Shown here one piece after another: positions 1 to 6,439 of a stretch of DNA of 6,439 nt. Within the stretch, counting starts at the first letter, position 1. Every line of letters starts with the position of its first letter. The notes below the pieces were generated by a model, which had not been told where the DNA came from, made no database searches, and saw nothing but the letters and a program-made list of their open reading frames with translations. Source of the stretch: a virus (lineage: Duplodnaviria > Heunggongvirae > Uroviricota > Caudoviricetes); IMG/VR virus record IMGVR_UViG_2695420565_000002; one strand, 5' to 3'. The translations under genes were made by a program, and so were the position numbers.

Positions 1-34
1 GGACTTCAGGGGAAAAACGAGTATTTTTAGTCAT
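1..34 (-). CDS. IS3-family transposase OrfA, N-terminal 11 codons only (partial, continues beyond window)
   Basis: ATG at 34..32 (minus) preceded by AAGAGGT SD with 8-nt spacer; translation MTKNTRFSPEV; sits inside the IS terminal region. Confidence 0.65.
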   Translation of the reverse strand, partial: MTKNTRFSPEV

Positions 35-88
35 CCTGTTTACCTCTTTCTCAGGAAGTTTAGTCTCCAGGATTCCCGGGGCGGTTCA
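1..88 (-). mobile_element. Left end of an IS3-family insertion sequence (IS629/IS1203-like), partial; rest of element lies beyond the window start
   Basis: Minus strand reads 5'-TGAACCGCCCCGGGAATCCTGGAGACTAAACTTCCTGAGAAAGAGGTAAACAGG-ATG from position 88 downward: a TGA-initiated terminal inverted repeat followed by an SD and an ORF start encoding MTKNTRFSPEV, which I recall as the N-terminus of IS629-group OrfA. Identification is from memory, not a search. Confidence 0.75.
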
Positions 89-560
89 GTAAGGGGGTAT
101 TTGTATTTATTGTCTTTTGTATATTGTCTTTTGTGTTTAGCTGACTTGGCTTATACCCATTAGCCGACTTGGCTAATGTTTTATTAGCTGTTTTAGCTAA
201 TGTTAAGCTGTCCTGGCTAATCCACTGAGAAACCACCTTGTTCACTCCGATTTTCACGCCATCAGCAATGAGGAATTTACGCTCAATAAGCTGGCGCTTG
301 GCAGCGCAAACATGAGTGTGATGAATACCTGTCATGGCTGCTATCTGCGTGTTTGTGAGTCGATCCATCGGCTTATTGAATCCGTATGTCTTGCGCATGA
401 TAGCGAGCATCACCTTCAACTGCCGGACGGTTAAATCAGCCATCAGCAGACTGTCGGTAATCTCGTTAGCAACGCGCATGAAACCATCTTCGGTATCTGC
501 CACGCGATGCTCCACGACCTCCAGTTGAGGCCTGTAATCAGCTAACTTAACGACGCCCAT
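60..560 (-). CDS. O: Lambda O-like replication initiator, N-terminal iteron-binding domain intact; C-terminus replaced by IS-derived codons (truncated by IS insertion)
   Basis: 166-aa ORF; motif LTVRQLKVMLAIMRKTYGFNKPMDRLTNTQIAAMTG resembles lambda O N-terminal domain (LTKRQFKVLLAILRKTYGWNKPMDRITDSQL, recalled). Strong SD AGGAG 6 nt upstream of ATG at 560. Iterons lie inside the coding sequence as in lambda O. Codon 158 spans the IS junction at 88/89, so the last 8 residues and the stop (62..60) are encoded by the IS inverted repeat. Confidence 0.8.
   Translation of the reverse strand: MGVVKLADYRPQLEVVEHRVADTEDGFMRVANEITDSLLMADLTVRQLKVMLAIMRKTYGFNKPMDRLTNTQIAAMTGIHHTHVCAAKRQLIERKFLIADGVKIGVNKVVSQWISQDSLTLAKTANKTLAKSANGYKPSQLNTKDNIQKTINTNTPLLNRPGNPGD
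98..136. repeat. AT-rich region of the replication origin, with a 13-bp direct repeat TATTGTCTTTTGT at 108..120 and 122..134
   Basis: Directly visible; strongly T-rich on the plus strand, immediately flanking the iteron array, matching the iterons-then-AT-rich layout of ori-lambda when read in the O coding direction. Confidence 0.55.
137..220. repeat. Origin iterons: four imperfect 17-18 bp dyad-symmetric repeats (TTAGCyGnyTTrGCTAA)
   Basis: Copies at 137..153 TTAGCTGACTTGGCTTA, 160..176 TTAGCCGACTTGGCTAA, 184..200 TTAGCTGTTTTAGCTAA, 203..220 TTAAGCTGTCCTGGCTAA; spacing 23, 24, 19 bp; embedded in the O-like gene. Confidence 0.7.
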
Positions 561-708
561 GTTTCACTCCTGCTTTGGCTAGTCTGTAAACACCAACAAG
601 GCGTTCTACGAACGCCCTGTTATTTGCTGCGGCTACCACTAATCCCTCAGGTGAATCAGGGTGTCGAATCTCTTCTTTTTCCTGGTATTTCTTACGACGT
701 TTTGTCAT
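547..708 (-). CDS. Small basic hypothetical protein (53 aa) between cII and O, not in the supplied ORF track
   Basis: ATG at 708..706 preceded by AGGAG with 5-nt spacer; translation MTKRRKKYQEKEEIRHPDSPEGLVVAAANNRAFVERLVGVYRLAKAGVKHGRR; stop TAA at 549..547 overlaps the first codons of the O-like gene, suggesting translational coupling. No homolog recognised. Confidence 0.4.
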   Translation of the reverse strand: MTKRRKKYQEKEEIRHPDSPEGLVVAAANNRAFVERLVGVYRLAKAGVKHGRR

Positions 709-717
709 AATTACTCC

Positions 718-785
718 TGTAGATTGATCCAGTCTTTCTACATCAGGCCTCGAAGAATTCGCCGTTCTTCGGGGCTTTTTCTTTT
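718..785 (+). ncRNA. Candidate OOP-like antisense RNA ending at an intrinsic terminator inside the cII 3' end
   Basis: Plus-strand hairpin with 11-bp stem 747..757/765..775 (one G-U pair), 7-nt loop, then TTTTTCTTTT 776..785; antisense to the last about 40 nt of cII. Possible extended -10 TGtCATAAT at 703..711. The 5' end is a guess. Confidence 0.4.
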
Positions 786-1024
786 GTCAGGTAATCGGCA
801 AGCCGCTTAGTCAATTCAGCCATTTCATCGTCTTCGATTCCGTATTCCAGAACAGCAAGCATCATGCTTACCTGCGAGAAGAAACCATTCTTCCATCGGC
901 TTACCTGATATTCAGGAACCCCCATTGCTCGAGCGAATGTCTTCTGCCCCATCAGTGCCAGTTTGTTCAGCAAGGCCGACTCGATGCGAGCCGCTTTCTT
1001 GCTTTTAGTTGCAATAGTACCCAT
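743..1024 (-). CDS. cII: Transcriptional activator CII (lambda cII homolog)
   Basis: 93 aa; RIESALLNKLALMG...QVSRWKNGF...FSQVSMMLAVLEYGIEDDEMAEL parallels lambda CII (RIESALLNKIAMLG...QISRWKRDWIPKFSMLLAVLEWGVVDDDMARL, recalled). SD AAGGA 8 nt upstream; located downstream of cro and nutR as in lambda. Confidence 0.9.
   Translation of the reverse strand: MGTIATKSKKAARIESALLNKLALMGQKTFARAMGVPEYQVSRWKNGFFSQVSMMLAVLEYGIEDDEMAELTKRLADYLTKEKAPKNGEFFEA
747..785 (+). terminator. Rho-independent terminator, antisense to cII 3' end
   Basis: GCCTCGAAGAA-ttcgccg-TTCTTCGGGGC followed by TTTTTCTTTT. Confidence 0.7.
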
Positions 1025-1100
1025 AGATAATTTCCTTAATGATTAGATAGAGTTGGCTTCGCAAAGAAACGCAAAACCATAGAGATTTGTTTCTGGTAAT

Positions 1101-1132
1101 GCCCTTTTTCAGGGCGGGGATGTGTAAGAGCG
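1101..1132 (-). promoter_or_regulatory. nutR antitermination site (boxA + boxB)
   Basis: Minus strand reads CGCTCTTACACATCC (boxA, 1132..1118) then GCCCTGAAAAAGGGC (boxB, 1115..1101); boxB matches lambda nutR boxB as recalled; placed between cro and cII. Confidence 0.8.
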
Positions 1133-1140
1133 GGAATGTC

Positions 1141-1356
1141 TTAAGCGGCTTTGTGTTCCGGCGGGAACACGTCATCAAGACTGACTTTTGCGCCTAACTT
1201 GTTTAGGCACTCAACAAGAGCACGGCATGTTTTAAGGTCTGGGAAGCGACGACCAGATTCCCAATGTCCGATAGCTCCCTGTGTGCATCCAACTGCCTTA
1301 GCAAGTGTTGTTTGAGAGATATTCAGTGACTCTCGATATTTTCGTAGGTTGCTCAT
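1141..1356 (-). CDS. cro: Cro-like HTH repressor (71 aa), non-lambda immunity type
   Basis: ATG at 1356 preceded by GGAGG (4-nt spacer). [26 protein letters not shown] resembles the cI HTH in this window ([23 protein letters not shown]). Divergent from cI across an operator region. The track's longer ORF begins at a TTG inside the predicted pR -10 and is not used. Confidence 0.8.
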
Positions 1357-1382
1357 ATGCCCTCCATAGTAACCATGAAACA

Positions 1383-1411
1383 ATAATACGATATGTACTT
1401 TTAGAATGCAA
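1383..1411 (-). promoter_or_regulatory. pR-like promoter for cro/cII/O
   Basis: Minus strand -35 TTGCAT (plus 1406..1411), 17-bp spacer, -10 TATTAT (plus 1383..1388); operator OR1 lies in the spacer. Confidence 0.6.
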
Positions 1412-1457
1412 GCAAAAATACATCTTGTGCATGGATGGTTTTAGTACAGAGCGTAAT
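1385..1457. promoter_or_regulatory. Right operator region with three 15-bp candidate repressor sites of the form ArTAC-N5-GTnnT
   Basis: 1385..1399 AATACGATATGTACT, 1417..1431 AATACATCTTGTGCA, 1443..1457 AGTACAGAGCGTAAT; related to the perfect dyad AGTACAAATCGTACT at pL (2264..2278). Confidence 0.5.
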
Positions 1458-1472
1458 AATAAGGGTATGAAA

Positions 1473-2126
1473 ATGAAATGGTATGAACTGGCTAGATCCA
1501 GAATGAAAGAGCTCGGCATAACTCAAGAGAAGTTAGCTGAAGAGCTTGGTATGACGCAGGGTGGAATTGGTCACTGGTTGCGCGGATCTCGTCATCCATC
1601 TCTTGACGAGATTGGTGTGGTGTTTAAATACCTTGGTATTGATAACGTCTCATTCAACCACGACGGTACATTTTCACCTGTTGGCGAATACTCATCTGCC
1701 CCCGTTAAAAAACAATATGAGTACCCTGTTTTTTCTCATGTTCAGGCAGGGATGTTCTCGCCTGAGCTTAGAACCTTTACCAAAGGTGATGCGGAGAGAT
1801 GGGTCAGCACAACCAAAAAAGCCAGTGATTGTGCGTTTTGGCTTGAAGTTGAAGGTAATTCCATGACCGCGCCAACAGGATCGAAGCCAAGCTTTCCTGA
1901 CGGGATGTTAATTCTCGTTGACCCCGAGCAGGCTGTTGAGCCAGGTGATTTCTGCATAGCCAGACTTGGTGGTGACGAGTTTACCTTCAAGAAACTGATC
2001 AGGGATAGCGGTCAGGTGTTCCTACAGCCACTAAACCCGCAATATCCAATGATTCCATGCAATGATAGCTGTTCCGTAGTAGGGAAAGTTATCGCCAGCC
2101 AGTGGCCTGAAGAGACATTTAGTTAA
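1473..2126 (+). CDS. cI: CI-type prophage repressor with LexA/S24-like autocleavage domain; hybrid (novel N-terminal HTH domain, lambda-type C-terminal domain)
   Basis: From [38 protein letters not shown] onward the protein matches lambda CI C-terminal domain almost residue for residue (recalled); N-terminal 80 aa differ and carry an XRE-type HTH. Start chosen at ATG 1473 (AAGGG 7 nt upstream); ATG 1467 is an alternative. Confidence 0.92.
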
Positions 2127-2157
2127 CAGCCTCACCACTCTAAAACACACAACAATA

Positions 2158-2188
2158 ACCCGACCTTAGCGTCGGGTTTTCTTTTTCC
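2158..2188 (+). terminator. Rho-independent terminator downstream of cI
   Basis: ACCCGAC-cttagc-GTCGGGT 7-bp stem followed by TTTCTTTTTCC. Confidence 0.7.
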
Positions 2189-2251
2189 AAAATATAAACC
2201 CATTAAATACAAAGCGTTATAAAAAAGTAGTTATATTTAGAACATTTTGTA

Positions 2252-2287
2252 TTGACTCGATAAAGTACAAATCGTACTATTTAGCCA
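2252..2287 (+). promoter_or_regulatory. pL-like early-left promoter with operator OL1
   Basis: -35 TTGACT 2252..2257, 17-bp spacer, -10 TACTAT 2275..2280; perfect dyad AGTACAAATCGTACT 2264..2278 overlaps spacer and -10; downstream ATCAGCAGGACGCACTGACCACCATGAAGGTGA matches the lambda pL transcript start as recalled. Confidence 0.75.
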
Positions 2288-2319
2288 TCAGCAGGACGCA
2301 CTGACCACCATGAAGGTGA

Positions 2320-2350
2320 GGCTCTTAAAAATTAAGCCCTGAAGAAGGGC
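2320..2350 (+). promoter_or_regulatory. nutL antitermination site (boxA + boxB)
   Basis: GGCTCTTAAAAATTAA then boxB GCCCTGAAGAAGGGC (2336..2350), matching lambda nutL as recalled. Confidence 0.85.
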
Positions 2351-2548
2351 AGCATTCAAAGCAGAAGGCTTTGGGATTGGATGAATGAGCAGGCTTATGC
2401 TCGACCAATGTATAAACAGCGCTCATGGCAAGCAGTAACCAATCTGCGCCTCAAGACAGCGTCACTGGTAGTGCGGGCGCTCTAACCAGTAAGCCGGGGT
2501 TCAGCGCCGGCCATCCAATCACCAAAGCTAACTGACAGGAGAATCCAG

Positions 2549-2881
2549 ATGGATGCACAAACACGCCGCCGCGAACGTCGCGCAGAGAAACAGGCTCAAT
2601 GGAAAGCAGCAAATCCCCTGTTGGTTGGGGTAAGCGCAAAACCAGTTAACCGCCCTATTCTCTCGCTGAATCGCAAACCGAAATCACGAGTAGAAAGCGC
2701 ACTGAATCCGATAGACCTTACAGTGCTGGCTGAATACCACGAACAGATTGAAAGCAACCTGCAACGTATTGAGCGCAAGAATCAGCGCACATGGTACAGC
2801 AAGCCACGCAGTGAAATGGGTGTGACCTGTTCAGGCCGCCAGAAGCAACGCGGAAAATCAATTCCAGCTTATTACGATTGA
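2549..2881 (+). CDS. N: Antitermination protein N
   Basis: 110 aa beginning MDAQTRRRERRAEKQAQWKAANPLLVGVSAKPVNRPILSLNRKPKSRVESALNPIDLTVLAEYH, matching lambda N from memory, including the arginine-rich boxB-binding motif; AGGAG SD; downstream of nutL. Confidence 0.95.
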   Translation: MDAQTRRRERRAEKQAQWKAANPLLVGVSAKPVNRPILSLNRKPKSRVESALNPIDLTVLAEYHEQIESNLQRIERKNQRTWYSKPRSEMGVTCSGRQKQRGKSIPAYYD

Positions 2882-2888
2882 GGTGGTC

Positions 2889-3026
2889 ATGCTCAAGAAA
2901 ATCAAACGCCGACTTTACAAAGAAGGTAGATATTCATGCCAATTGCCAAAATGCGACACAACAAAATGGAGTGTCGATGATTGGTGTAACTGGATAGATA
3001 GATACGGAACTTGGTGGGATAAATAA
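2889..3026 (+). CDS. Hypothetical small Cys/Trp-rich protein (45 aa)
   Basis: ATG 2889 with GAGGTG just upstream overlapping the N stop; MLKKIKRRLYKEGRYSCQLPKCDTTKWSVDDWCNWIDRYGTWWDK; occupies the position where lambda carries sieB. Below the ORF-track length cutoff. Confidence 0.3.
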   Translation: MLKKIKRRLYKEGRYSCQLPKCDTTKWSVDDWCNWIDRYGTWWDK

Positions 3027-3080
3027 CAGGTAACTTAAGCGTATTTACTTTCGCGGCAAACCACATATTTGAGGTGAGAT

Positions 3081-3167
3081 ATGGAAGAAGAATTTGAAGA
3101 GTTCGAAGAGCATCCGCAGGATGTGATGGAACAATACCAGGACTATCCGTATGACTACGACTATTGA
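3081..3167 (+). CDS. Highly acidic 28-aa peptide (lambda orf28 equivalent)
   Basis: GAGGTG SD 4 nt upstream of ATG 3081; MEEEFEEFEEHPQDVMEQYQDYPYDYDY; overlaps the ral start by 17 nt in another frame; same position as lambda orf28 upstream of ral. Confidence 0.55.
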   Translation: MEEEFEEFEEHPQDVMEQYQDYPYDYDY

Positions 3168-3351
3168 TACAAATCAATGGTGTGGACAATTCAAGCGATG
3201 CAATGGATGCAAGCTGCAATCGGAATACATGGTTAAGCCTGAAGAAATGTTTCCTGTAATGGAAGATGGGAAATATGTCGATAAATGGGCAATACGAACG
3301 ACGGCAATGATTGCCAGAGAACTTGGTAAACAGAATAACAAGGCTGCCTGA
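3151..3351 (+). CDS. ral: Restriction alleviation protein Ral
   Basis: 66 aa MTTTIDTNQWCGQFKRCNGCKLQSEYMVKPEEMFPVMEDGKYVDKWAIRTTAMIARELGKQNNKAA, nearly identical to lambda Ral as recalled. Confidence 0.92.
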   Translation: MTTTIDTNQWCGQFKRCNGCKLQSEYMVKPEEMFPVMEDGKYVDKWAIRTTAMIARELGKQNNKAA

Positions 3352-3390
3352 TGGTGGCCTTTATTTTTGGCATAAACAACAGAGGATAAC

Positions 3391-3687
3391 ATGGAATTTA
3401 AAGGTACTGAAGGCAAGTGGGAAATAATGATGGATGGCGATGAGATTAAAATAATCCAGGCAGACTCACTTGAAAATGGCGCAGGCTGGCGTTCGTATAT
3501 TGCAATCTGTGAGGAAGTTCAATGTATTGAAGATGCCAATCTAATAGCGGCAGCACCTGACCTTCTCGAAGCACTTCAGTTATTACTTAAGCAATCCAAA
3601 AATAGAACAACGACAACATATCCAGAATGGTATGGAGCTGTTAATAAAGGTCTTGCAGCAATCAGCAAGGCTCTGGGAGGTGAATGA
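3391..3687 (+). CDS. Hypothetical protein (98 aa), early-left operon
   Basis: AGAGGA SD 4 nt upstream; protein-like composition; stop overlaps the next start (ATGA). No family recognised. Confidence 0.7.
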   Translation: MEFKGTEGKWEIMMDGDEIKIIQADSLENGAGWRSYIAICEEVQCIEDANLIAAAPDLLEALQLLLKQSKNRTTTTYPEWYGAVNKGLAAISKALGGE

Positions 3688-3887
3688 TGTGCGAGTTTTA
3701 TGAAGCAGATATCAAACGCCCAGAAATGGCAAGTGATGCGACATTACGTGATTACTTCGCGGCAAAGGCTATGCAAGCAATGATTAGCAATCCATCGATT
3801 ATCGATAATGATTCTGATGGAGTTGTTAATTATGCAGCAAGCGCTGCATATAAGTTTGCAGACGCAATGCTCAAAGCTCGCGAATAA
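3684..3887 (+). CDS. Hypothetical protein (67 aa; 66 aa if starting at ATG 3687)
   Basis: GGGAGG SD at 3675..3680; ATGA overlap with the upstream gene; MMCEFYEADIKRPEMASDATLRDYFAAKAMQAM...; no family recognised. Confidence 0.65.
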   Translation: MMCEFYEADIKRPEMASDATLRDYFAAKAMQAMISNPSIIDNDSDGVVNYAASAAYKFADAMLKARE

Positions 3888-3892
3888 GCACT

Positions 3893-3920
3893 GTGTATTC
3901 ATTCCAACGAGTGAATACAC
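3893..3920 (+). other. Strong RNA hairpin without U-tract (12-bp stem GTGTATTCATTC / GAGTGAATACAC, loop CAAC)
   Basis: Stem seen directly in sequence, 5 nt after the stop of the 67-aa gene; not followed by a T-run, so not a typical intrinsic terminator. Confidence 0.5.
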
Positions 3921-3982
3921 GGAGCAATGTCGCTCGTAACTAAACAGGAGCCGACTTGTTCTGATTATTGGAAATCTTCTTT

Positions 3983-4010
3983 GCCCTCCGATGTGGGGGG
4001 CCTTTTTATA
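3983..4010 (+). terminator. Rho-independent terminator within the early-left operon, upstream of the cIII-like gene
   Basis: GCCCTCC-gatgt-GGGGGGC (7 bp, one G-U) followed by CTTTTTATA. Confidence 0.6.
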
Positions 4011-4073
4011 TGCATACCAATAACGCTTCACTCGAGGCGTTTTCGTTATGCAATCAAACAGAAGGAGCATCCT

Positions 4074-4244
4074 ATGCAACAGTTCGCTATTGCAGGGGCG
4101 GCATCGGTTCGCCCTTTCAACCCGATTTTATCGGTACAGCATTCACGAAAAAACATTTTAACCGGAGCAGACTTTAAACAACCAAGAATGAAAAGTTTGC
4201 TCGAAAAGCTTTGGGATATTTTGAAACAACAAGGCCGTCCATGA
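4074..4244 (+). CDS. CIII-like protein (56 aa), putative FtsH/HflB inhibitor
   Basis: GAAGGAG SD 6 nt upstream of ATG 4074; N-terminus MQQFAIAG and C-terminus SLLEKLWDILKQQGRP resemble lambda CIII (MQYAIAG...RLIDILNQPGVP, recalled); the central region differs. The longer track ORF from 3927 would span the terminator and is not used. Confidence 0.5.
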   Translation: MQQFAIAGAASVRPFNPILSVQHSRKNILTGADFKQPRMKSLLEKLWDILKQQGRP

Positions 4245-4411
4245 GTTTTACAGATAACTGGTCAGACGAAGAATTCATTCGTCAGATGAAAGAATTAATC
4301 GGTAACGAAGGAGATATTCATGTCACTTGCAACCACAGTGAAGGAGAGCAAGTTACAGAGACGCATGTACACGCAGCAGGCGTTAATGTATCGCCAGAAG
4401 GGAGATCGTGA
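4241..4411 (+). CDS. Hypothetical small acidic protein (56 aa), start overlaps cIII-like stop (ATGA)
   Basis: MSFTDNWSDEEFIRQMKELIGNEGDIH...; weak SD; C-terminal half looks less protein-like; overlaps an alternative-frame ORF with a much better SD. Confidence 0.4.
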   Translation: MSFTDNWSDEEFIRQMKELIGNEGDIHVTCNHSEGEQVTETHVHAAGVNVSPEGRS

Positions 4412-4490
4412 AGGTGTTCGCGTATTTTTAAATGCGGCAAAGACTGAAGTATTAAATCAGCGTTATTTCCTTGGGCCATGTCCATTCTGA
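4320..4490 (+). CDS. Hypothetical small protein (56 aa) in alternative frame, not in the ORF track
   Basis: AAGGAG SD at 4308..4313, 6-nt spacer, ATG 4320; MSLATTVKESKLQRRMYTQQALMYRQKGDREGVRVFLNAAKTEVLNQRYFLGPCPF; ends 8 nt before the SSAP start. Sits where lambda has kil/gam. Confidence 0.45.
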   Translation: MSLATTVKESKLQRRMYTQQALMYRQKGDREGVRVFLNAAKTEVLNQRYFLGPCPF

Positions 4491-4498
4491 GGTGAATT

Positions 4499-5206
4499 AT
4501 GGATTTGAATAAATTCGATGAGCCATTCAGCCCTGAAGATATCGAATGGCGAATACAGCAAAGCGGTAAAACACGCGATGGCAAAGTGTGGGCTATGGTG
4601 CTGGCTTATGTCACGAACCGGGCAATCATGAAACGCCTGGACGATGTTTGCGGCAAAGCAGGATGGCGCAATGAATACCGCGATATTCCCAACAACGGCG
4701 GCGTTGAATGCGGCATATCGATAAAGATTGATTCCGAATGGGTAACCAAATGGGATGCTGCTGAAAACACGCAGGTAGAAGCCGTCAAAGGTGGTCGTTC
4801 CGGTGCAATGAAGCGCGCTGCCGTTCAGTGGGGAATCGGTCGGTATCTGTATAACCTTGAGGAAGGTTTCGCACAAACATCTCTCGATAAAAAGCAGGGG
4901 TGGCACAGGGCAAAACTGAAGGATGGAACAGGATTTTACTGGCTACCTCCATCGCTGCCGGGATGGGCAATCCCAGCATCAGATAACAAACCATCACCAG
5001 AAAATACCAACCAGAAATCTCCATCGGTTGACTGCGAACAAATCCTGAAAGACTTCAGCGATTATGCATCAACAGAAACTGACAAGAAAAAACTCATAGA
5101 ACGTTATCAGCATGACTGGCAATTAATGGCTGGCAATGAGGATGCGCAGGCTAAATGCGTTCAGGTAATGAACATCAGAGTTAACGAACTAAAACAGGCG
5201 GCATAA
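4499..5206 (+). CDS. Rad52/Sak-type single-strand annealing protein (phage recombinase)
   Basis: 235 aa; motifs AYVTNRAIMKRLDDVCGKAGWRNEY and GAMKRAAVQWGIGRYLYNL match the Rad52-superfamily signature (ALKRxxxxFGIGRYLY) as I recall it; immediately followed by ssb. Confidence 0.8.
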   Translation: MDLNKFDEPFSPEDIEWRIQQSGKTRDGKVWAMVLAYVTNRAIMKRLDDVCGKAGWRNEYRDIPNNGGVECGISIKIDSEWVTKWDAAENTQVEAVKGGRSGAMKRAAVQWGIGRYLYNLEEGFAQTSLDKKQGWHRAKLKDGTGFYWLPPSLPGWAIPASDNKPSPENTNQKSPSVDCEQILKDFSDYASTETDKKKLIERYQHDWQLMAGNEDAQAKCVQVMNIRVNELKQAA

Positions 5207-5713
5207 ATGGCAAGCAGAGGCGTAAATAAGGTGATTATCCTTGGTCGGGTAGGACAAGACCCGGAAGTTCGATACTCACCATCAGGAACAGCGTTCGCTA
5301 ACCTGACAATAGCCACGTCAGAACAATGGCGAGATAAAAATACTGGCGAGCAAAAGGAATTGACTGAATGGCATCGTGTTGCTGTATCCGGGAAACTGGC
5401 TGAGGTCGTGGGGCAGTATGTGAAAAAAGGTGATCAGATTTATTTCGAGGGAATGCTGAGAACCAGAAAGTGGAAAGACCAGTCAGGGCAAGACCGTTAC
5501 ACAACCGAGGTTCATGTCGGAATTAATGGCGTGATGCAAATGCTTGGCGGCATTGGCGACAGCAAACAACAAGCAGCCAGCAGGCAATCACAGAAGCCAC
5601 AGCAGCAATCATCACCAGCACAACACAACGAACCTCCGATGGATTTTGACGACGATATACCCTTTGCACCAGTAACTCTCCCCTTCCCTCGTCACGCTAT
5701 TCACGCAATTTAA
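5207..5713 (+). CDS. ssb: Single-stranded DNA-binding protein SSB, with C-terminal extension beyond the DDDIPF motif
   Basis: N-terminal OB-fold region [23 protein letters not shown]...[15 protein letters not shown]...[19 protein letters not shown] closely parallels E. coli SSB; Gln/Pro-rich linker; [10 protein letters not shown] is followed by 15 more residues ([15 protein letters not shown]) before the stop. Confidence 0.93.
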
Positions 5714-5726
5714 TCAGGAGAAAATC

Positions 5727-6023
5727 ATGCCAGCGCCTCTGTATGGTGCGGATGACCCGCGCCGCTGTTCCGGCAATTCCGTATCGGAGGTGCTGGATAA
5801 ATTCAGAAAAAACTACGATCGGATAATGTCTCTACCGCAGGAAACGAAAGATGAAAAGGAATTTCGCCATTGTATATGGCTTGCAGAGAAAGAAGAACGA
5901 GAGCGAATTTACCAGACATCAATCCGACCATTCCGCAAAGCCACATATACCCACTTCCCTGAATATATCGACCCGCGCCTGCGTAATTACCGCTCACGCT
6001 ATGGCGCTATCAGTAATGACTGA
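5727..6023 (+). CDS. Hypothetical protein (98 aa)
   Basis: AGGAG SD 6 nt upstream of ATG 5727; basic, protein-like composition; no family recognised. Confidence 0.6.
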
Positions 6024-6033
6024 GGAATTTACC

Positions 6034-6198
6034 ATGAGAGGACTTGCATACAATCCCGGCATTCTTCCGGCAGAAATGATTATTCGCCAACGCGTAAAGC
6101 CAATGCCATCGAGAGAGGAATTGCTTAAGAGAAATAGTTTCTGTTCTGTTAATGACAACAAATATCTGAATGCAATGTGGCGGAGTGGGAAAAAATGA
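6034..6198 (+). CDS. Hypothetical small protein (54 aa)
   Basis: TGAGGAA SD 6 nt upstream of ATG 6034; the track's longer ORF (5851..6198) overlaps the upstream gene and lacks an SD at its start. Confidence 0.45.
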
Positions 6199-6320
6199 CA
6201 ATCACAAAACAACGTGTAGAAGAAATCATATCCCGCATTGAAATGTATGGGCATGGTGCAGGGTATACCGCTGACGAGGTTTATGACCTGGCTGTACTGG
6301 CGCTGAATTTATCAAATTGA
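6195..6320 (+). CDS. Hypothetical small protein (41 aa), possibly a gene fragment terminated by the IS terminal TGA
   Basis: ATG 6195 overlaps the upstream stop (ATGA); [41 protein letters not shown]; its stop TGA 6318..6320 coincides with the first three bases of the IS inverted repeat. Confidence 0.4.
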
Positions 6321-6439
6321 GGTAGCCTGAGTTTAACGGACACTCCTTCCTGAAATAGAATGGCATCAGAAGGAGCTAATAATGAGCAGAAAAACCCAAC
6401 GTTACTCTAAAGAGTTCAAAGCCGAAGCTGTCAGAACGG
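6318..6439 (+). mobile_element. Left end of a second IS3-family insertion sequence (IS600-like), partial; continues beyond window end
   Basis: TGAGGTAGCCTGAGTTTAACGGACACTCC... terminal repeat starting with TGA, then AAGGAG SD and orfA start MSRKTQRYSKEFKAEAVRT. The SxEFKxEAV motif is typical of IS3-family OrfA HTH proteins; the IS600 assignment is from memory. Confidence 0.7.
6382..6439 (+). CDS. IS3-family transposase OrfA, N-terminal 19 codons (partial)
   Basis: ATG 6382, AAGGAG SD with 6-nt spacer; MSRKTQRYSKEFKAEAVRT. Confidence 0.7.
   Translation, partial: MSRKTQRYSKEFKAEAVRT

Follow-up and report, generated by a model that had tools for sequence, protein, structure and literature searches.

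The window, that is the whole stretch of 6,439 nucleotides that was analysed, comes from a lambdoid prophage, of which it is the immunity and early-left region. Its features are listed below with coordinates, strand and, where one was used, the supporting profile match.

1-88, minus strand: end of an IS3-family element, lying inside the O-like gene (from reading of the sequence and plasmid matches)
60-560, minus strand: O-like replication gene, covering only profile positions 4-171 of 232
547-708, minus strand: small conserved ORF
743-1024, minus strand: cII
about 1141-1356, minus strand: cro-like repressor gene
about 1467-2126, plus strand: cI/LexA-type repressor gene
2549-2881, plus strand: N
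2883-3026, plus strand: small ORF
3151-3351, plus strand: ral
3391-3687 and 3684-3887, plus strand: two ORFs with no assigned function
3983-4001 and 4022-4041, plus strand: two terminator-like hairpins in the tL position, 5' of cIII
4074-4244, plus strand: cIII-like gene (PHROG 550 'CIII', E=5.8e-22)
4241-4411, plus strand: small acidic ORF A (PHROG 2123, E=7e-40)
4320-4490, plus strand: small ORF B (PHROG 1723, E=4.5e-34)
4499-5206, plus strand: single-strand annealing protein of the Rad52/Sak type, 235 aa (PF04098, E=5.1e-26)
5207-5713, plus strand: bacterial-type SSB, 168 aa (PF00436, E=1.6e-36; TIGR00621)
5727-6023, plus strand: Abc2, anti-RecBCD protein (PF11043, E=1.3e-61)
6034-6198, plus strand: DUF2737 gene, homologue of P22 orf56 (PF10930, E=2.4e-29)
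6195-6320, plus strand: PHROG 3126 gene, of which an IS leaves only the 5' part (profile positions 1-41 of 105)
6318-6439, plus strand: left end and orfA start of IS600 (IS3 family)

Since both 1-88 and 6318-6439 are IS ends, the prophage piece at 89-6317 is bracketed by insertion sequences. For positions 1-100, 2,879 plasmid records had matches that cover at least 80% of the segment, annotated there as 'IS3 family transposase'. We take this left end to be IS629-like; its orfA starts with MTKNTRFSPEV on the minus strand. Homology to E. coli prophages, to which the window prophage is 97-99% identical, begins at position 89. Judged by this identity and by the types of IS, the host is probably an Escherichia or a Shigella; the junction of prophage and IS600 had no match among contigs of one genome per species. 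On the right side, 400 plasmid records matched over at least 80% of the IS600 query, one of them annotated 'IS3-like element IS600 family transposase', and the IS that an earlier note on this DNA had placed at 6318 is the end of this element. The O replication gene is broken at 88/89 by the IS3-family element, and IS600 cuts the gene 3' of the DUF2737 gene and, as read from the sequence, supplies the stop codon of the PHROG 3126 gene. Therefore, the recombination genes described here probably no longer serve phage growth in the present host. No Chi site occurs in the window; this fits the avoidance of Chi by Abc2 phages, but 6.4 kb is too short for the absence to be meaningful.

The earlier note had proposed that a Rad52/Sak-family annealing protein followed immediately by an SSB takes the place of the lambda Red module. 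Both identities were confirmed, the coordinates given were exact, and the pair does occupy the Red place in the leftward operon, 3' of N, ral and cIII. The 235-aa protein matched PF04098 (Rad52_Rad22, Pfam) over residues 4-136 with 91.9 bits against a cut-off of 20.3, and PHROG 1097 with E=4.6e-130. Its relatives form 5,599 clusters, and PF04098 was present in 120 of 120 among the matches listed. A single-sequence search of the PDB returned only a weak WW-domain-like stretch (E=0.1). In the fold comparison of the AlphaFold model (pLDDT 84), the top 16 PDB matches were Mgm101 and human RAD52, with probability 0.93-1.0 and E down to 1.8e-4; a Rad52-like fold with a beta-beta-beta-alpha core is thus predicted for the protein. 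It begins with an N-terminal domain of the Rad52/Sak type (about residues 1-160), which a disordered linker (about 162-175) joins to a C-terminal domain of three helices (179-234).

The C-terminal domain is homologous to that of P22 Erf. Residues 157-235 are 66% identical to residues 134-205 of P22 Erf, and the alignment to Erf is limited to these C-terminal 79 residues. The ERF N-terminal annealing domain (PF04404) was not matched by the window protein, whereas P22 Erf itself matched it with E=4.6e-46. A chimera of a Rad52-type N-terminus and an Erf-type C-terminus was named 'Erf domain swap' in the genome paper of epsilon34 (PMC2629481), which cites earlier papers for it as well. Modelled alone, the C-terminal domain is a confident three-helix bundle (pLDDT 91). 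Its fold gave no significant match in the PDB, the best being MIT domains with E=0.68, and the Red-beta C-terminal domain was absent from the top 50 fold matches. When PDB sequences were searched with a profile, nothing but a colicin coiled coil (E=0.009) was returned, which was judged compositional, and Pfam gave no match to this domain.

The two small ORFs upstream of the annealing gene overlap in different frames. ORF A resembles HK022 gp42 and Sf6 gp30, and its counterpart in HK75 is HK75_33. At its N-terminus stands SDEEFI, which P22 Arf shares; the match to Arf is 7 residues long, and ORF A may be the Arf analogue. ORF B resembles Sf6 gp29 and HK97 gp42 and lies directly 5' of the annealing gene, which is the arf position of P22; its frame is annotated by PGAP in E. 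coli. In the region 4241-4319, five of seven substitutions fall on third codon positions of ORF A, and in the overlap of the two ORFs 12 of the 17 variable sites are third positions of the ORF B frame.

The gene packing is tight. The stop codon TAA of the annealing gene abuts the ATG of ssb (5204-5209), gaps of 10-13 nt hold ribosome-binding sites, and there is an ATGA overlap at 6195-6198. The SSB matched TIGR00621 with 166.9 bits (cut-off 53.95) and E. coli SSB (1eqq) with E=6.6e-58. It consists of an OB fold (residues 1-115), a Gln-rich linker and the acidic tip DFDDDIPF at residues 146-153 (nt 5642-5665), beyond which it continues for 15 residues.

No exonuclease gene had been recognised before the IS, and the earlier note had left room for a nuclease domain in 5727-6320. 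Such a domain was looked for and is absent: no nuclease family was matched by any ORF from N (2549) to 6320 in Pfam, PHROGs and NCBIfam, and no ORF of the window matched Exo/YqaJ, Red-beta/RecT or Gam. The first small ORF downstream of ssb, which had been overlooked, is Abc2. It scored 205.2 bits (cut-off 25) with PF11043 over all 97 profile positions (1-97 of 97). It shares 92% identity with P22 Abc2 and aligned with 'Anti-RecBCD protein 2' of the RecBCD complex structures (PDB 8b1t/8b1u) with E=3.4e-56. Pro68, which the eLife structure placed in the active site of PpiB (PMC9836394), is conserved in the motif IRPF.

The same arrangement is found in phage HK75. The segment 4241-6198 is 98.7% identical to HK75 DNA over 1,958 bases without a frameshift, and gene order and gene lengths are the same. 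Like the window, HK75 carries an anti-RecBCD gene, an SSB gene and an annealing gene and has no nuclease, and it is plaque-forming. The differences are that the cIII/kil segment (window 4098-4240) is another allele and that the window prophage is cut by two IS elements. Table 1 of PMC12315714 gives the HK75 class as anti-RecBCD present, SSB present, nuclease absent and SAP present, with 27 of 325 lambdoid phages (2025). The window belongs to this type, as the annealing, SSB and anti-RecBCD genes are contiguous in the early left operon and no nuclease match occurs in 2883-6320. The suspicion that the recombination module may be incomplete is therefore not supported, because 5727-6023 encodes Abc2 and the identical layout of HK75 is viable. 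The identities of the genes, their intactness, the synteny with P22 and the near-identity to a viable HK75 module are established. From all this, 4241-6198 is probably a recombination module that is P22-like, intact and of the HK75 type, in a lambdoid leftward early operon, and its nuclease would be borrowed from the host through Abc2. Its gene order is two overlapping small ORFs in the arf position, the annealing gene, ssb, abc2 and the DUF2737 gene.

The module can be compared with other lambdoid systems. It shares with P22 the operon position and the order c3-kil-arf-erf-abc1-abc2-orf56, 74% identity between the DUF2737 protein, whose gene is a conserved 3' neighbour of abc2, and the orf56 product, and presumably the use of host RecBCD as a nuclease. 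In contrast to P22, its annealing domain is Rad52/Sak (PF04098) instead of ERF (PF04404), ssb replaces abc1, and its ORFs in the arf position share just the 7-residue stretch with Arf. HK620 (hkaM, sak4, ssb, abc2) also combines a recombinase, a cognate SSB and Abc2 and lacks a nuclease, but its recombinase is the RecA-like Sak4 and its SSB is non-homologous to bacterial SSB (PMC12315714, PMC5928155). The HK620 SSB strongly stimulates the neighbouring recombinase through its C-terminal residues (PMC5928155), and by analogy the window SSB may co-operate with its annealing protein. With lambda Red (exo, bet, gam) the module shares the place in the pL operon and an annealing recombination that is independent of RecA, with RecBCD neutralised. 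On the other hand, Exo, Gam and Red-beta are missing, RecBCD would be modified and not blocked, and an SSB is encoded. Close relatives with an added gene are Sf6 (genes 30-25) and the ES18-type modules. By eye, Sf6 gp28 differs from the window annealing protein by few residue changes, and abc2 and the small upstream ORFs are the same, whereas an endonuclease gene of the HNH type, gp26, is inserted in the 3' end of the Sf6 ssb.

How such a module would work without a nuclease can be drawn from the studies of P22. P22 Abc2 binds RecC, and in Murphy's model, as PMC9836394 cites it, RecBCD becomes through Abc2 the resection nuclease and the loader for the phage recombinase. The RecBCD-Abc2 structures of 2022 agree with this model, and the authors point out that phages encoding Abc2 apparently have no exonuclease, which the hijacked RecBCD would supply (PMC9836394). 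PMC5928155 likewise states that Abc2 turns RecBCD into a 5'-3' exonuclease. By homology, the Abc2 of the window would bind RecC and alter RecBCD. The module would thus lack a nuclease because that of the host is borrowed, and on the Abc2/RecBCD model the absence of a phage exonuclease is therefore what one would expect rather than a gap. Even for P22 the model is unproven, and the loading of the recombinase by Abc2-RecBCD 'remains to be tested' according to the eLife authors (PMC9836394).

Expression of the module presumably takes place only after induction, from antiterminated pL transcription. The transcript would pass the terminators at about 3983-4041 with the help of N; we infer this N dependence because in HK75, too, a pair of terminators is annotated at the corresponding position. 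Abc2 would then bind RecC of host RecBCD, and the response to Chi would be lost. As Murphy's model has it, the modified enzyme would resect double-strand ends and pass 3' single strands to the phage recombinase, by which RecA would be bypassed. The phage SSB would coat the resected single-stranded DNA, and the annealing protein would pair the coated strand with its complement, for example at a replication fork or at a second resected end.

Abc2 could instead merely shield linear and rolling-circle phage DNA by disabling RecBCD, while the annealing protein and the SSB act without dedicated resection, on single-stranded DNA at forks or on ends produced by host nucleases such as RecJ. Some observations point in this direction. 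Oligonucleotide recombineering with the HK620 system was aided by its SSB and gained nothing from abc2 (PMC5928155), the effects of Abc2 on RecBCD have been called complex and less well understood (PMC9836394), and relatives from Yersinia, Hafnia and Erwinia have the same annealing protein without an Abc2 recognisable by Pfam. However, Murphy's finding, as cited in PMC9836394, that the Abc2-modified enzyme resembles a constitutively Chi-activated complex with increased 5'-exonuclease activity does not suit a mere shield, and we regard this account as unlikely. The borrowing of a modified RecBCD is preferred.

To place the module among its relatives, 80 viral contigs with a near-identical Abc2 were surveyed; these are close relatives and not independent samples. 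The annealing gene was of the Erf type in 48 loci and of the Rad52 type in 24, and the remaining loci end at contig ends. In 47 of the 48 Erf-type loci the annealing gene is followed by the gene of a 127-aa OB-fold SSB, and all 24 Rad52-type loci carry the SSB family of the window. Each type of annealing domain thus travels with its own type of SSB in these 72 abc2 loci. The Erf-related C-terminal domain was found in 72 of 72 annealing proteins, Erf type and Rad52 type alike. The idea that this domain is strictly coupled to Abc2 as a docking domain was nevertheless rejected, because diverged family members from Yersinia, Hafnia and Erwinia still have the domain although Pfam recognises no Abc2 in their neighbourhood, and because the Abc2 of HK620 is paired with Sak4, which is non-homologous to Erf.

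The space between ssb and abc2 varies among the Rad52-type loci. Twelve of them have ssb and abc2 directly adjacent, one of these with extra small overlapping ORFs in other frames. Five add a 182-aa exonuclease (Rv2179c-like, PF16473, E=1.3e-73), and seven add an HNH-type endonuclease of 155-159 aa. Complete E. coli genomes show the direct ssb-abc2 junction as well, in 188 of 5,426 cases with E2348/69 among them, and in E. coli prophages with the module the RefSeq names are 'Rad52/Rad22 family DNA repair protein', 'ssb', 'phage anti-RecBCD protein' and 'DUF2737'.

These added genes raise the question of whether the window module is a decayed form that has lost a nuclease gene, given that relatives keep a DnaQ-like 3'-5' exonuclease or an HNH endonuclease beside ssb. 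Between ssb and abc2, mEp235, mEpX2 and epsilon34 have the 182-aa Rv2179c-like exonuclease, and Sf6 and IME10 have an HNH-type endonuclease; moreover, the window prophage is itself damaged by IS elements. Against this, all ORFs of the module are full length, and the ssb-abc2 junction is clean and free of scars with an intact ribosome-binding site. The layout without a nuclease is that of plaque-forming HK75 and of 27 phages of the 2025 panel (PMC12315714). The extra genes of the relatives are also of the wrong kind for a Red-type partner, one encoding a 3'-5' exonuclease and the other being a cassette inside the ssb frame. The exonuclease gene is a clean cassette directly 3' of the ssb stop codon, and its enzyme, acting 3'-5', is not a Red-type partner. 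Decay is thus highly improbable, and the module is best regarded as complete for its type, ordinary and already catalogued.

The HNH gene is inserted in a particular way. In two of the surveyed loci, L062 and L040, the alignment with the window ssb runs to the Phe codon of ...IPF, is interrupted by a cassette of about 440 bp and resumes at the codons of the 14 extension residues, continuing into abc2. Identity to the window is 98-99% downstream in both loci and also upstream in L062, while the ssb of L040 is a diverged allele, about 72% identical to that of the window. The cassette brings an ssb stop codon, a ribosome-binding site and an ORF in frame with the old ssb extension. The ORF reads into this extension, and therefore the C-terminus of the endonuclease is made of ssb extension residues. 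The same is seen in Sf6, where the SSB gp27 ends with ...DDSDIPF and the endonuclease gp26 ends with the 14 extension residues; the Sf6 record notes '14 contiguous amino acids identical to E. coli SSB'. The PHROG endonuclease profile stops before the ssb-derived tail. The cassette was assigned on three grounds: its match to PHROG 2340 'endonuclease' (E about 1e-39 to 1e-47), the names given in databases, and a motif HH...CH...H seen by eye; Pfam gave no match for the cassette proteins. Two different HNH genes occupy the same ssb site. Judged from these sequences, the cassette looks like a selfish insertion of a homing endonuclease, and on this reading the window carries the uninterrupted allele, the 'empty site'. 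In PMC12315714 the HNH nuclease was cautiously counted as a member of the Rec module, but it is probably not an exonuclease partner either.

The site of this insertion is also the point at which the SSB departs from its bacterial counterparts. The alignment to solved SSBs ends at residue 153, which corresponds to the last residue of E. coli SSB (178 residues, 1eqq), and the 15-residue extension (nt 5666-5710) follows. The acidic tip ...DDDIPF therefore does not end the protein with a free Phe carboxylate. In SSB the terminal Phe binds partners through its ring and its free carboxylate (PMC6393309). Because the extension buries this residue, partner binding should change, and the usual contacts that depend on the tip may not be used. 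A tblastn search with the 28-residue tail found 166 phage records covering at least 80% of it. The tail occurs on unrelated scaffolds, such as proteins of Klebsiella phage KB57 (407 aa) and E. coli phage VivaForever (316 aa), and also on SSBs of Vibrio phages, canonical as well as non-canonical. With a profile of 11 tails, 49 clusters were obtained at E<=0.001 among 1.84 billion representative proteins, and this library was used for the counts, as the same search in a collection of 5.8 billion proteins gave short fragments only. In about 46 of the 49 clusters the motif ends at most 3 residues from the C-terminus, and the proteins range from 50 to 415 aa. When ten long proteins with the tail were compared with Pfam, PF00436 was found in one, DUF669 in one and no domain in eight. 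The consensus is roughly D-D-I-P-F-A-P-[IV]-G-L-[QP]-[YF]-x(3,4)-hydrophobic-[HY]-x-[IFM]-COOH, and the string DIPFAP did not occur in the papers that were searched. We tentatively propose, at somewhat less than even confidence, that the extension exemplifies a portable C-terminal motif, so far undescribed, which phage ssDNA-binding proteins carry. The motif would bury the Phe carboxylate that partners of host SSB recognise. It may keep the phage SSB from recruiting host partners such as exonuclease I, or direct it to another target, and the junction of tip and extension would be a hot-spot of HNH insertion. The extension is not essential, since phages of the Sf6 type live with an SSB that has the canonical end.

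The finding as a whole is already known, given the HK75 class in PMC12315714, the RefSeq annotation, the 188 E. coli genomes and the domain swap of PMC2629481. Abc2 is the textbook answer to why an exonuclease is missing, and little changes in this respect. For the choice of recombineering parts it is of practical use that the annealing protein is accompanied by a cognate SSB and by a modifier of RecBCD. What might be new is confined to the extended tail of the SSB and the insertion site of the HNH gene. If the tail is a real partner-switching motif, the encoded SSB would not be a simple copy of host SSB, and this would bear on the matching of annealing proteins and SSBs for portability across species. 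If the HNH gene is a selfish insert, the 'HNH nuclease' of the ES18- and Sf6-type modules would not be a recombination partner. Judging by the site, one of the four 'nuclease types' that have been tallied for lambdoid Rec modules may lie outside the recombination machinery.

The SSB (window 5207-5713, 168 aa) continues for 15 residues beyond the tip DFDDDIPF, and tip and extension together occupy window 5642-5710 (SSB residues 146-168). Phages of Klebsiella, Vibrio and E. coli have unrelated ssDNA-binding proteins that end in a motif similar to this tail, DDIPF-AP[IV]GL[QP][YF]...[HY]x[IFM]. This motif was present in 49 representative clusters, nearly every time at the extreme C-terminus. The string DIPFAP was not found in the literature searched. 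In the DNA-binding domain of the same SSB, Ser at residue 61 (window 5387-5389) is aligned with the Phe of the E. coli SSB segment HRVVLFGKLAEV, the DNA-contacting Phe60.

In relatives, the boundary between tip and extension, at the equivalent of window 5665/5666, is the exact insertion point of a cassette of about 440 bp that encodes an HNH-type endonuclease. In these relatives the SSB terminates at IPF, and the endonuclease itself terminates with a 14-residue stretch. The one insertion site is used by two different HNH genes. The HNH-type cassette looks like a homing endonuclease rather than a recombination nuclease. A 182-aa Rv2179c-like/DnaQ-type 3'-5' exonuclease gene is found in mEp235, mEpX2, and epsilon34, where it forms a clean cassette that follows the stop codon of ssb and precedes the ribosome-binding site of abc2. 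This exonuclease cassette is absent from the window and from HK75. The cassettes were located as follows.

Locus L062, 3502-3941: HNH-type cassette
Locus L040, 3496-3941: HNH-type cassette
Locus L095 (Sf6), 3121-3609: HNH-type cassette
Locus L002 (mEp235), 4415-4987: exonuclease cassette, corresponding to window 5713/5714

The annealing protein's C-terminal domain (residues 157-235, window 4967-5206) was confidently predicted as a three-helix bundle, for which no PDB match was obtained. The domain swap in this protein is already in the literature. A conserved segment rich in Trp and Pro, GWHRAKLKDGTGFYWLPPSLPGWAIP, covers residues 129-160 (window 4883-4978), and W148, P151, L153, P154, W156, and P159 are invariant among 30 relatives. 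Against PRP40, the segment gave a weak WW-domain-like match (E=0.1).

Upstream, window 4241-4490 holds two overlapping ORFs in different frames, ORF A (4241-4411) and ORF B (4320-4490), which belong to separate PHROG families, each labelled 'recombinase'. The choice of frame varies between annotators. Judged by the substitution patterns, frame B is favoured where the two ORFs overlap, and frame A in the part upstream of the overlap. Near its start, ORF A contains ...SDEEFI..., as does P22 Arf.

The ral gene is placed between N and the recombination module.

Window 3151-3351: ral (restriction alleviation), PHROG 1055, E=1.7e-48

The O-like replication gene (window 60-560) is interrupted by an IS3-family element end (window 1-88), which we take to be IS629-like. 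The prophage fragment thus lies between two IS elements, this end and the IS600 that begins at 6318, which makes it very likely that the prophage is defective.

Diverged relatives carry, in place of abc2, a gene for an unrelated protein 129-170 aa long.

Locus L089 (Yersinia), 4195-4584: protein at the abc2 position
Locus L092 (Hafnia), 4158-4670: protein at the abc2 position

No Pfam family was found for these two proteins, and they have the motif ITxFHRxxxSVGG...GGATGGxTLN in common. Each could be another RecBCD-directed protein.
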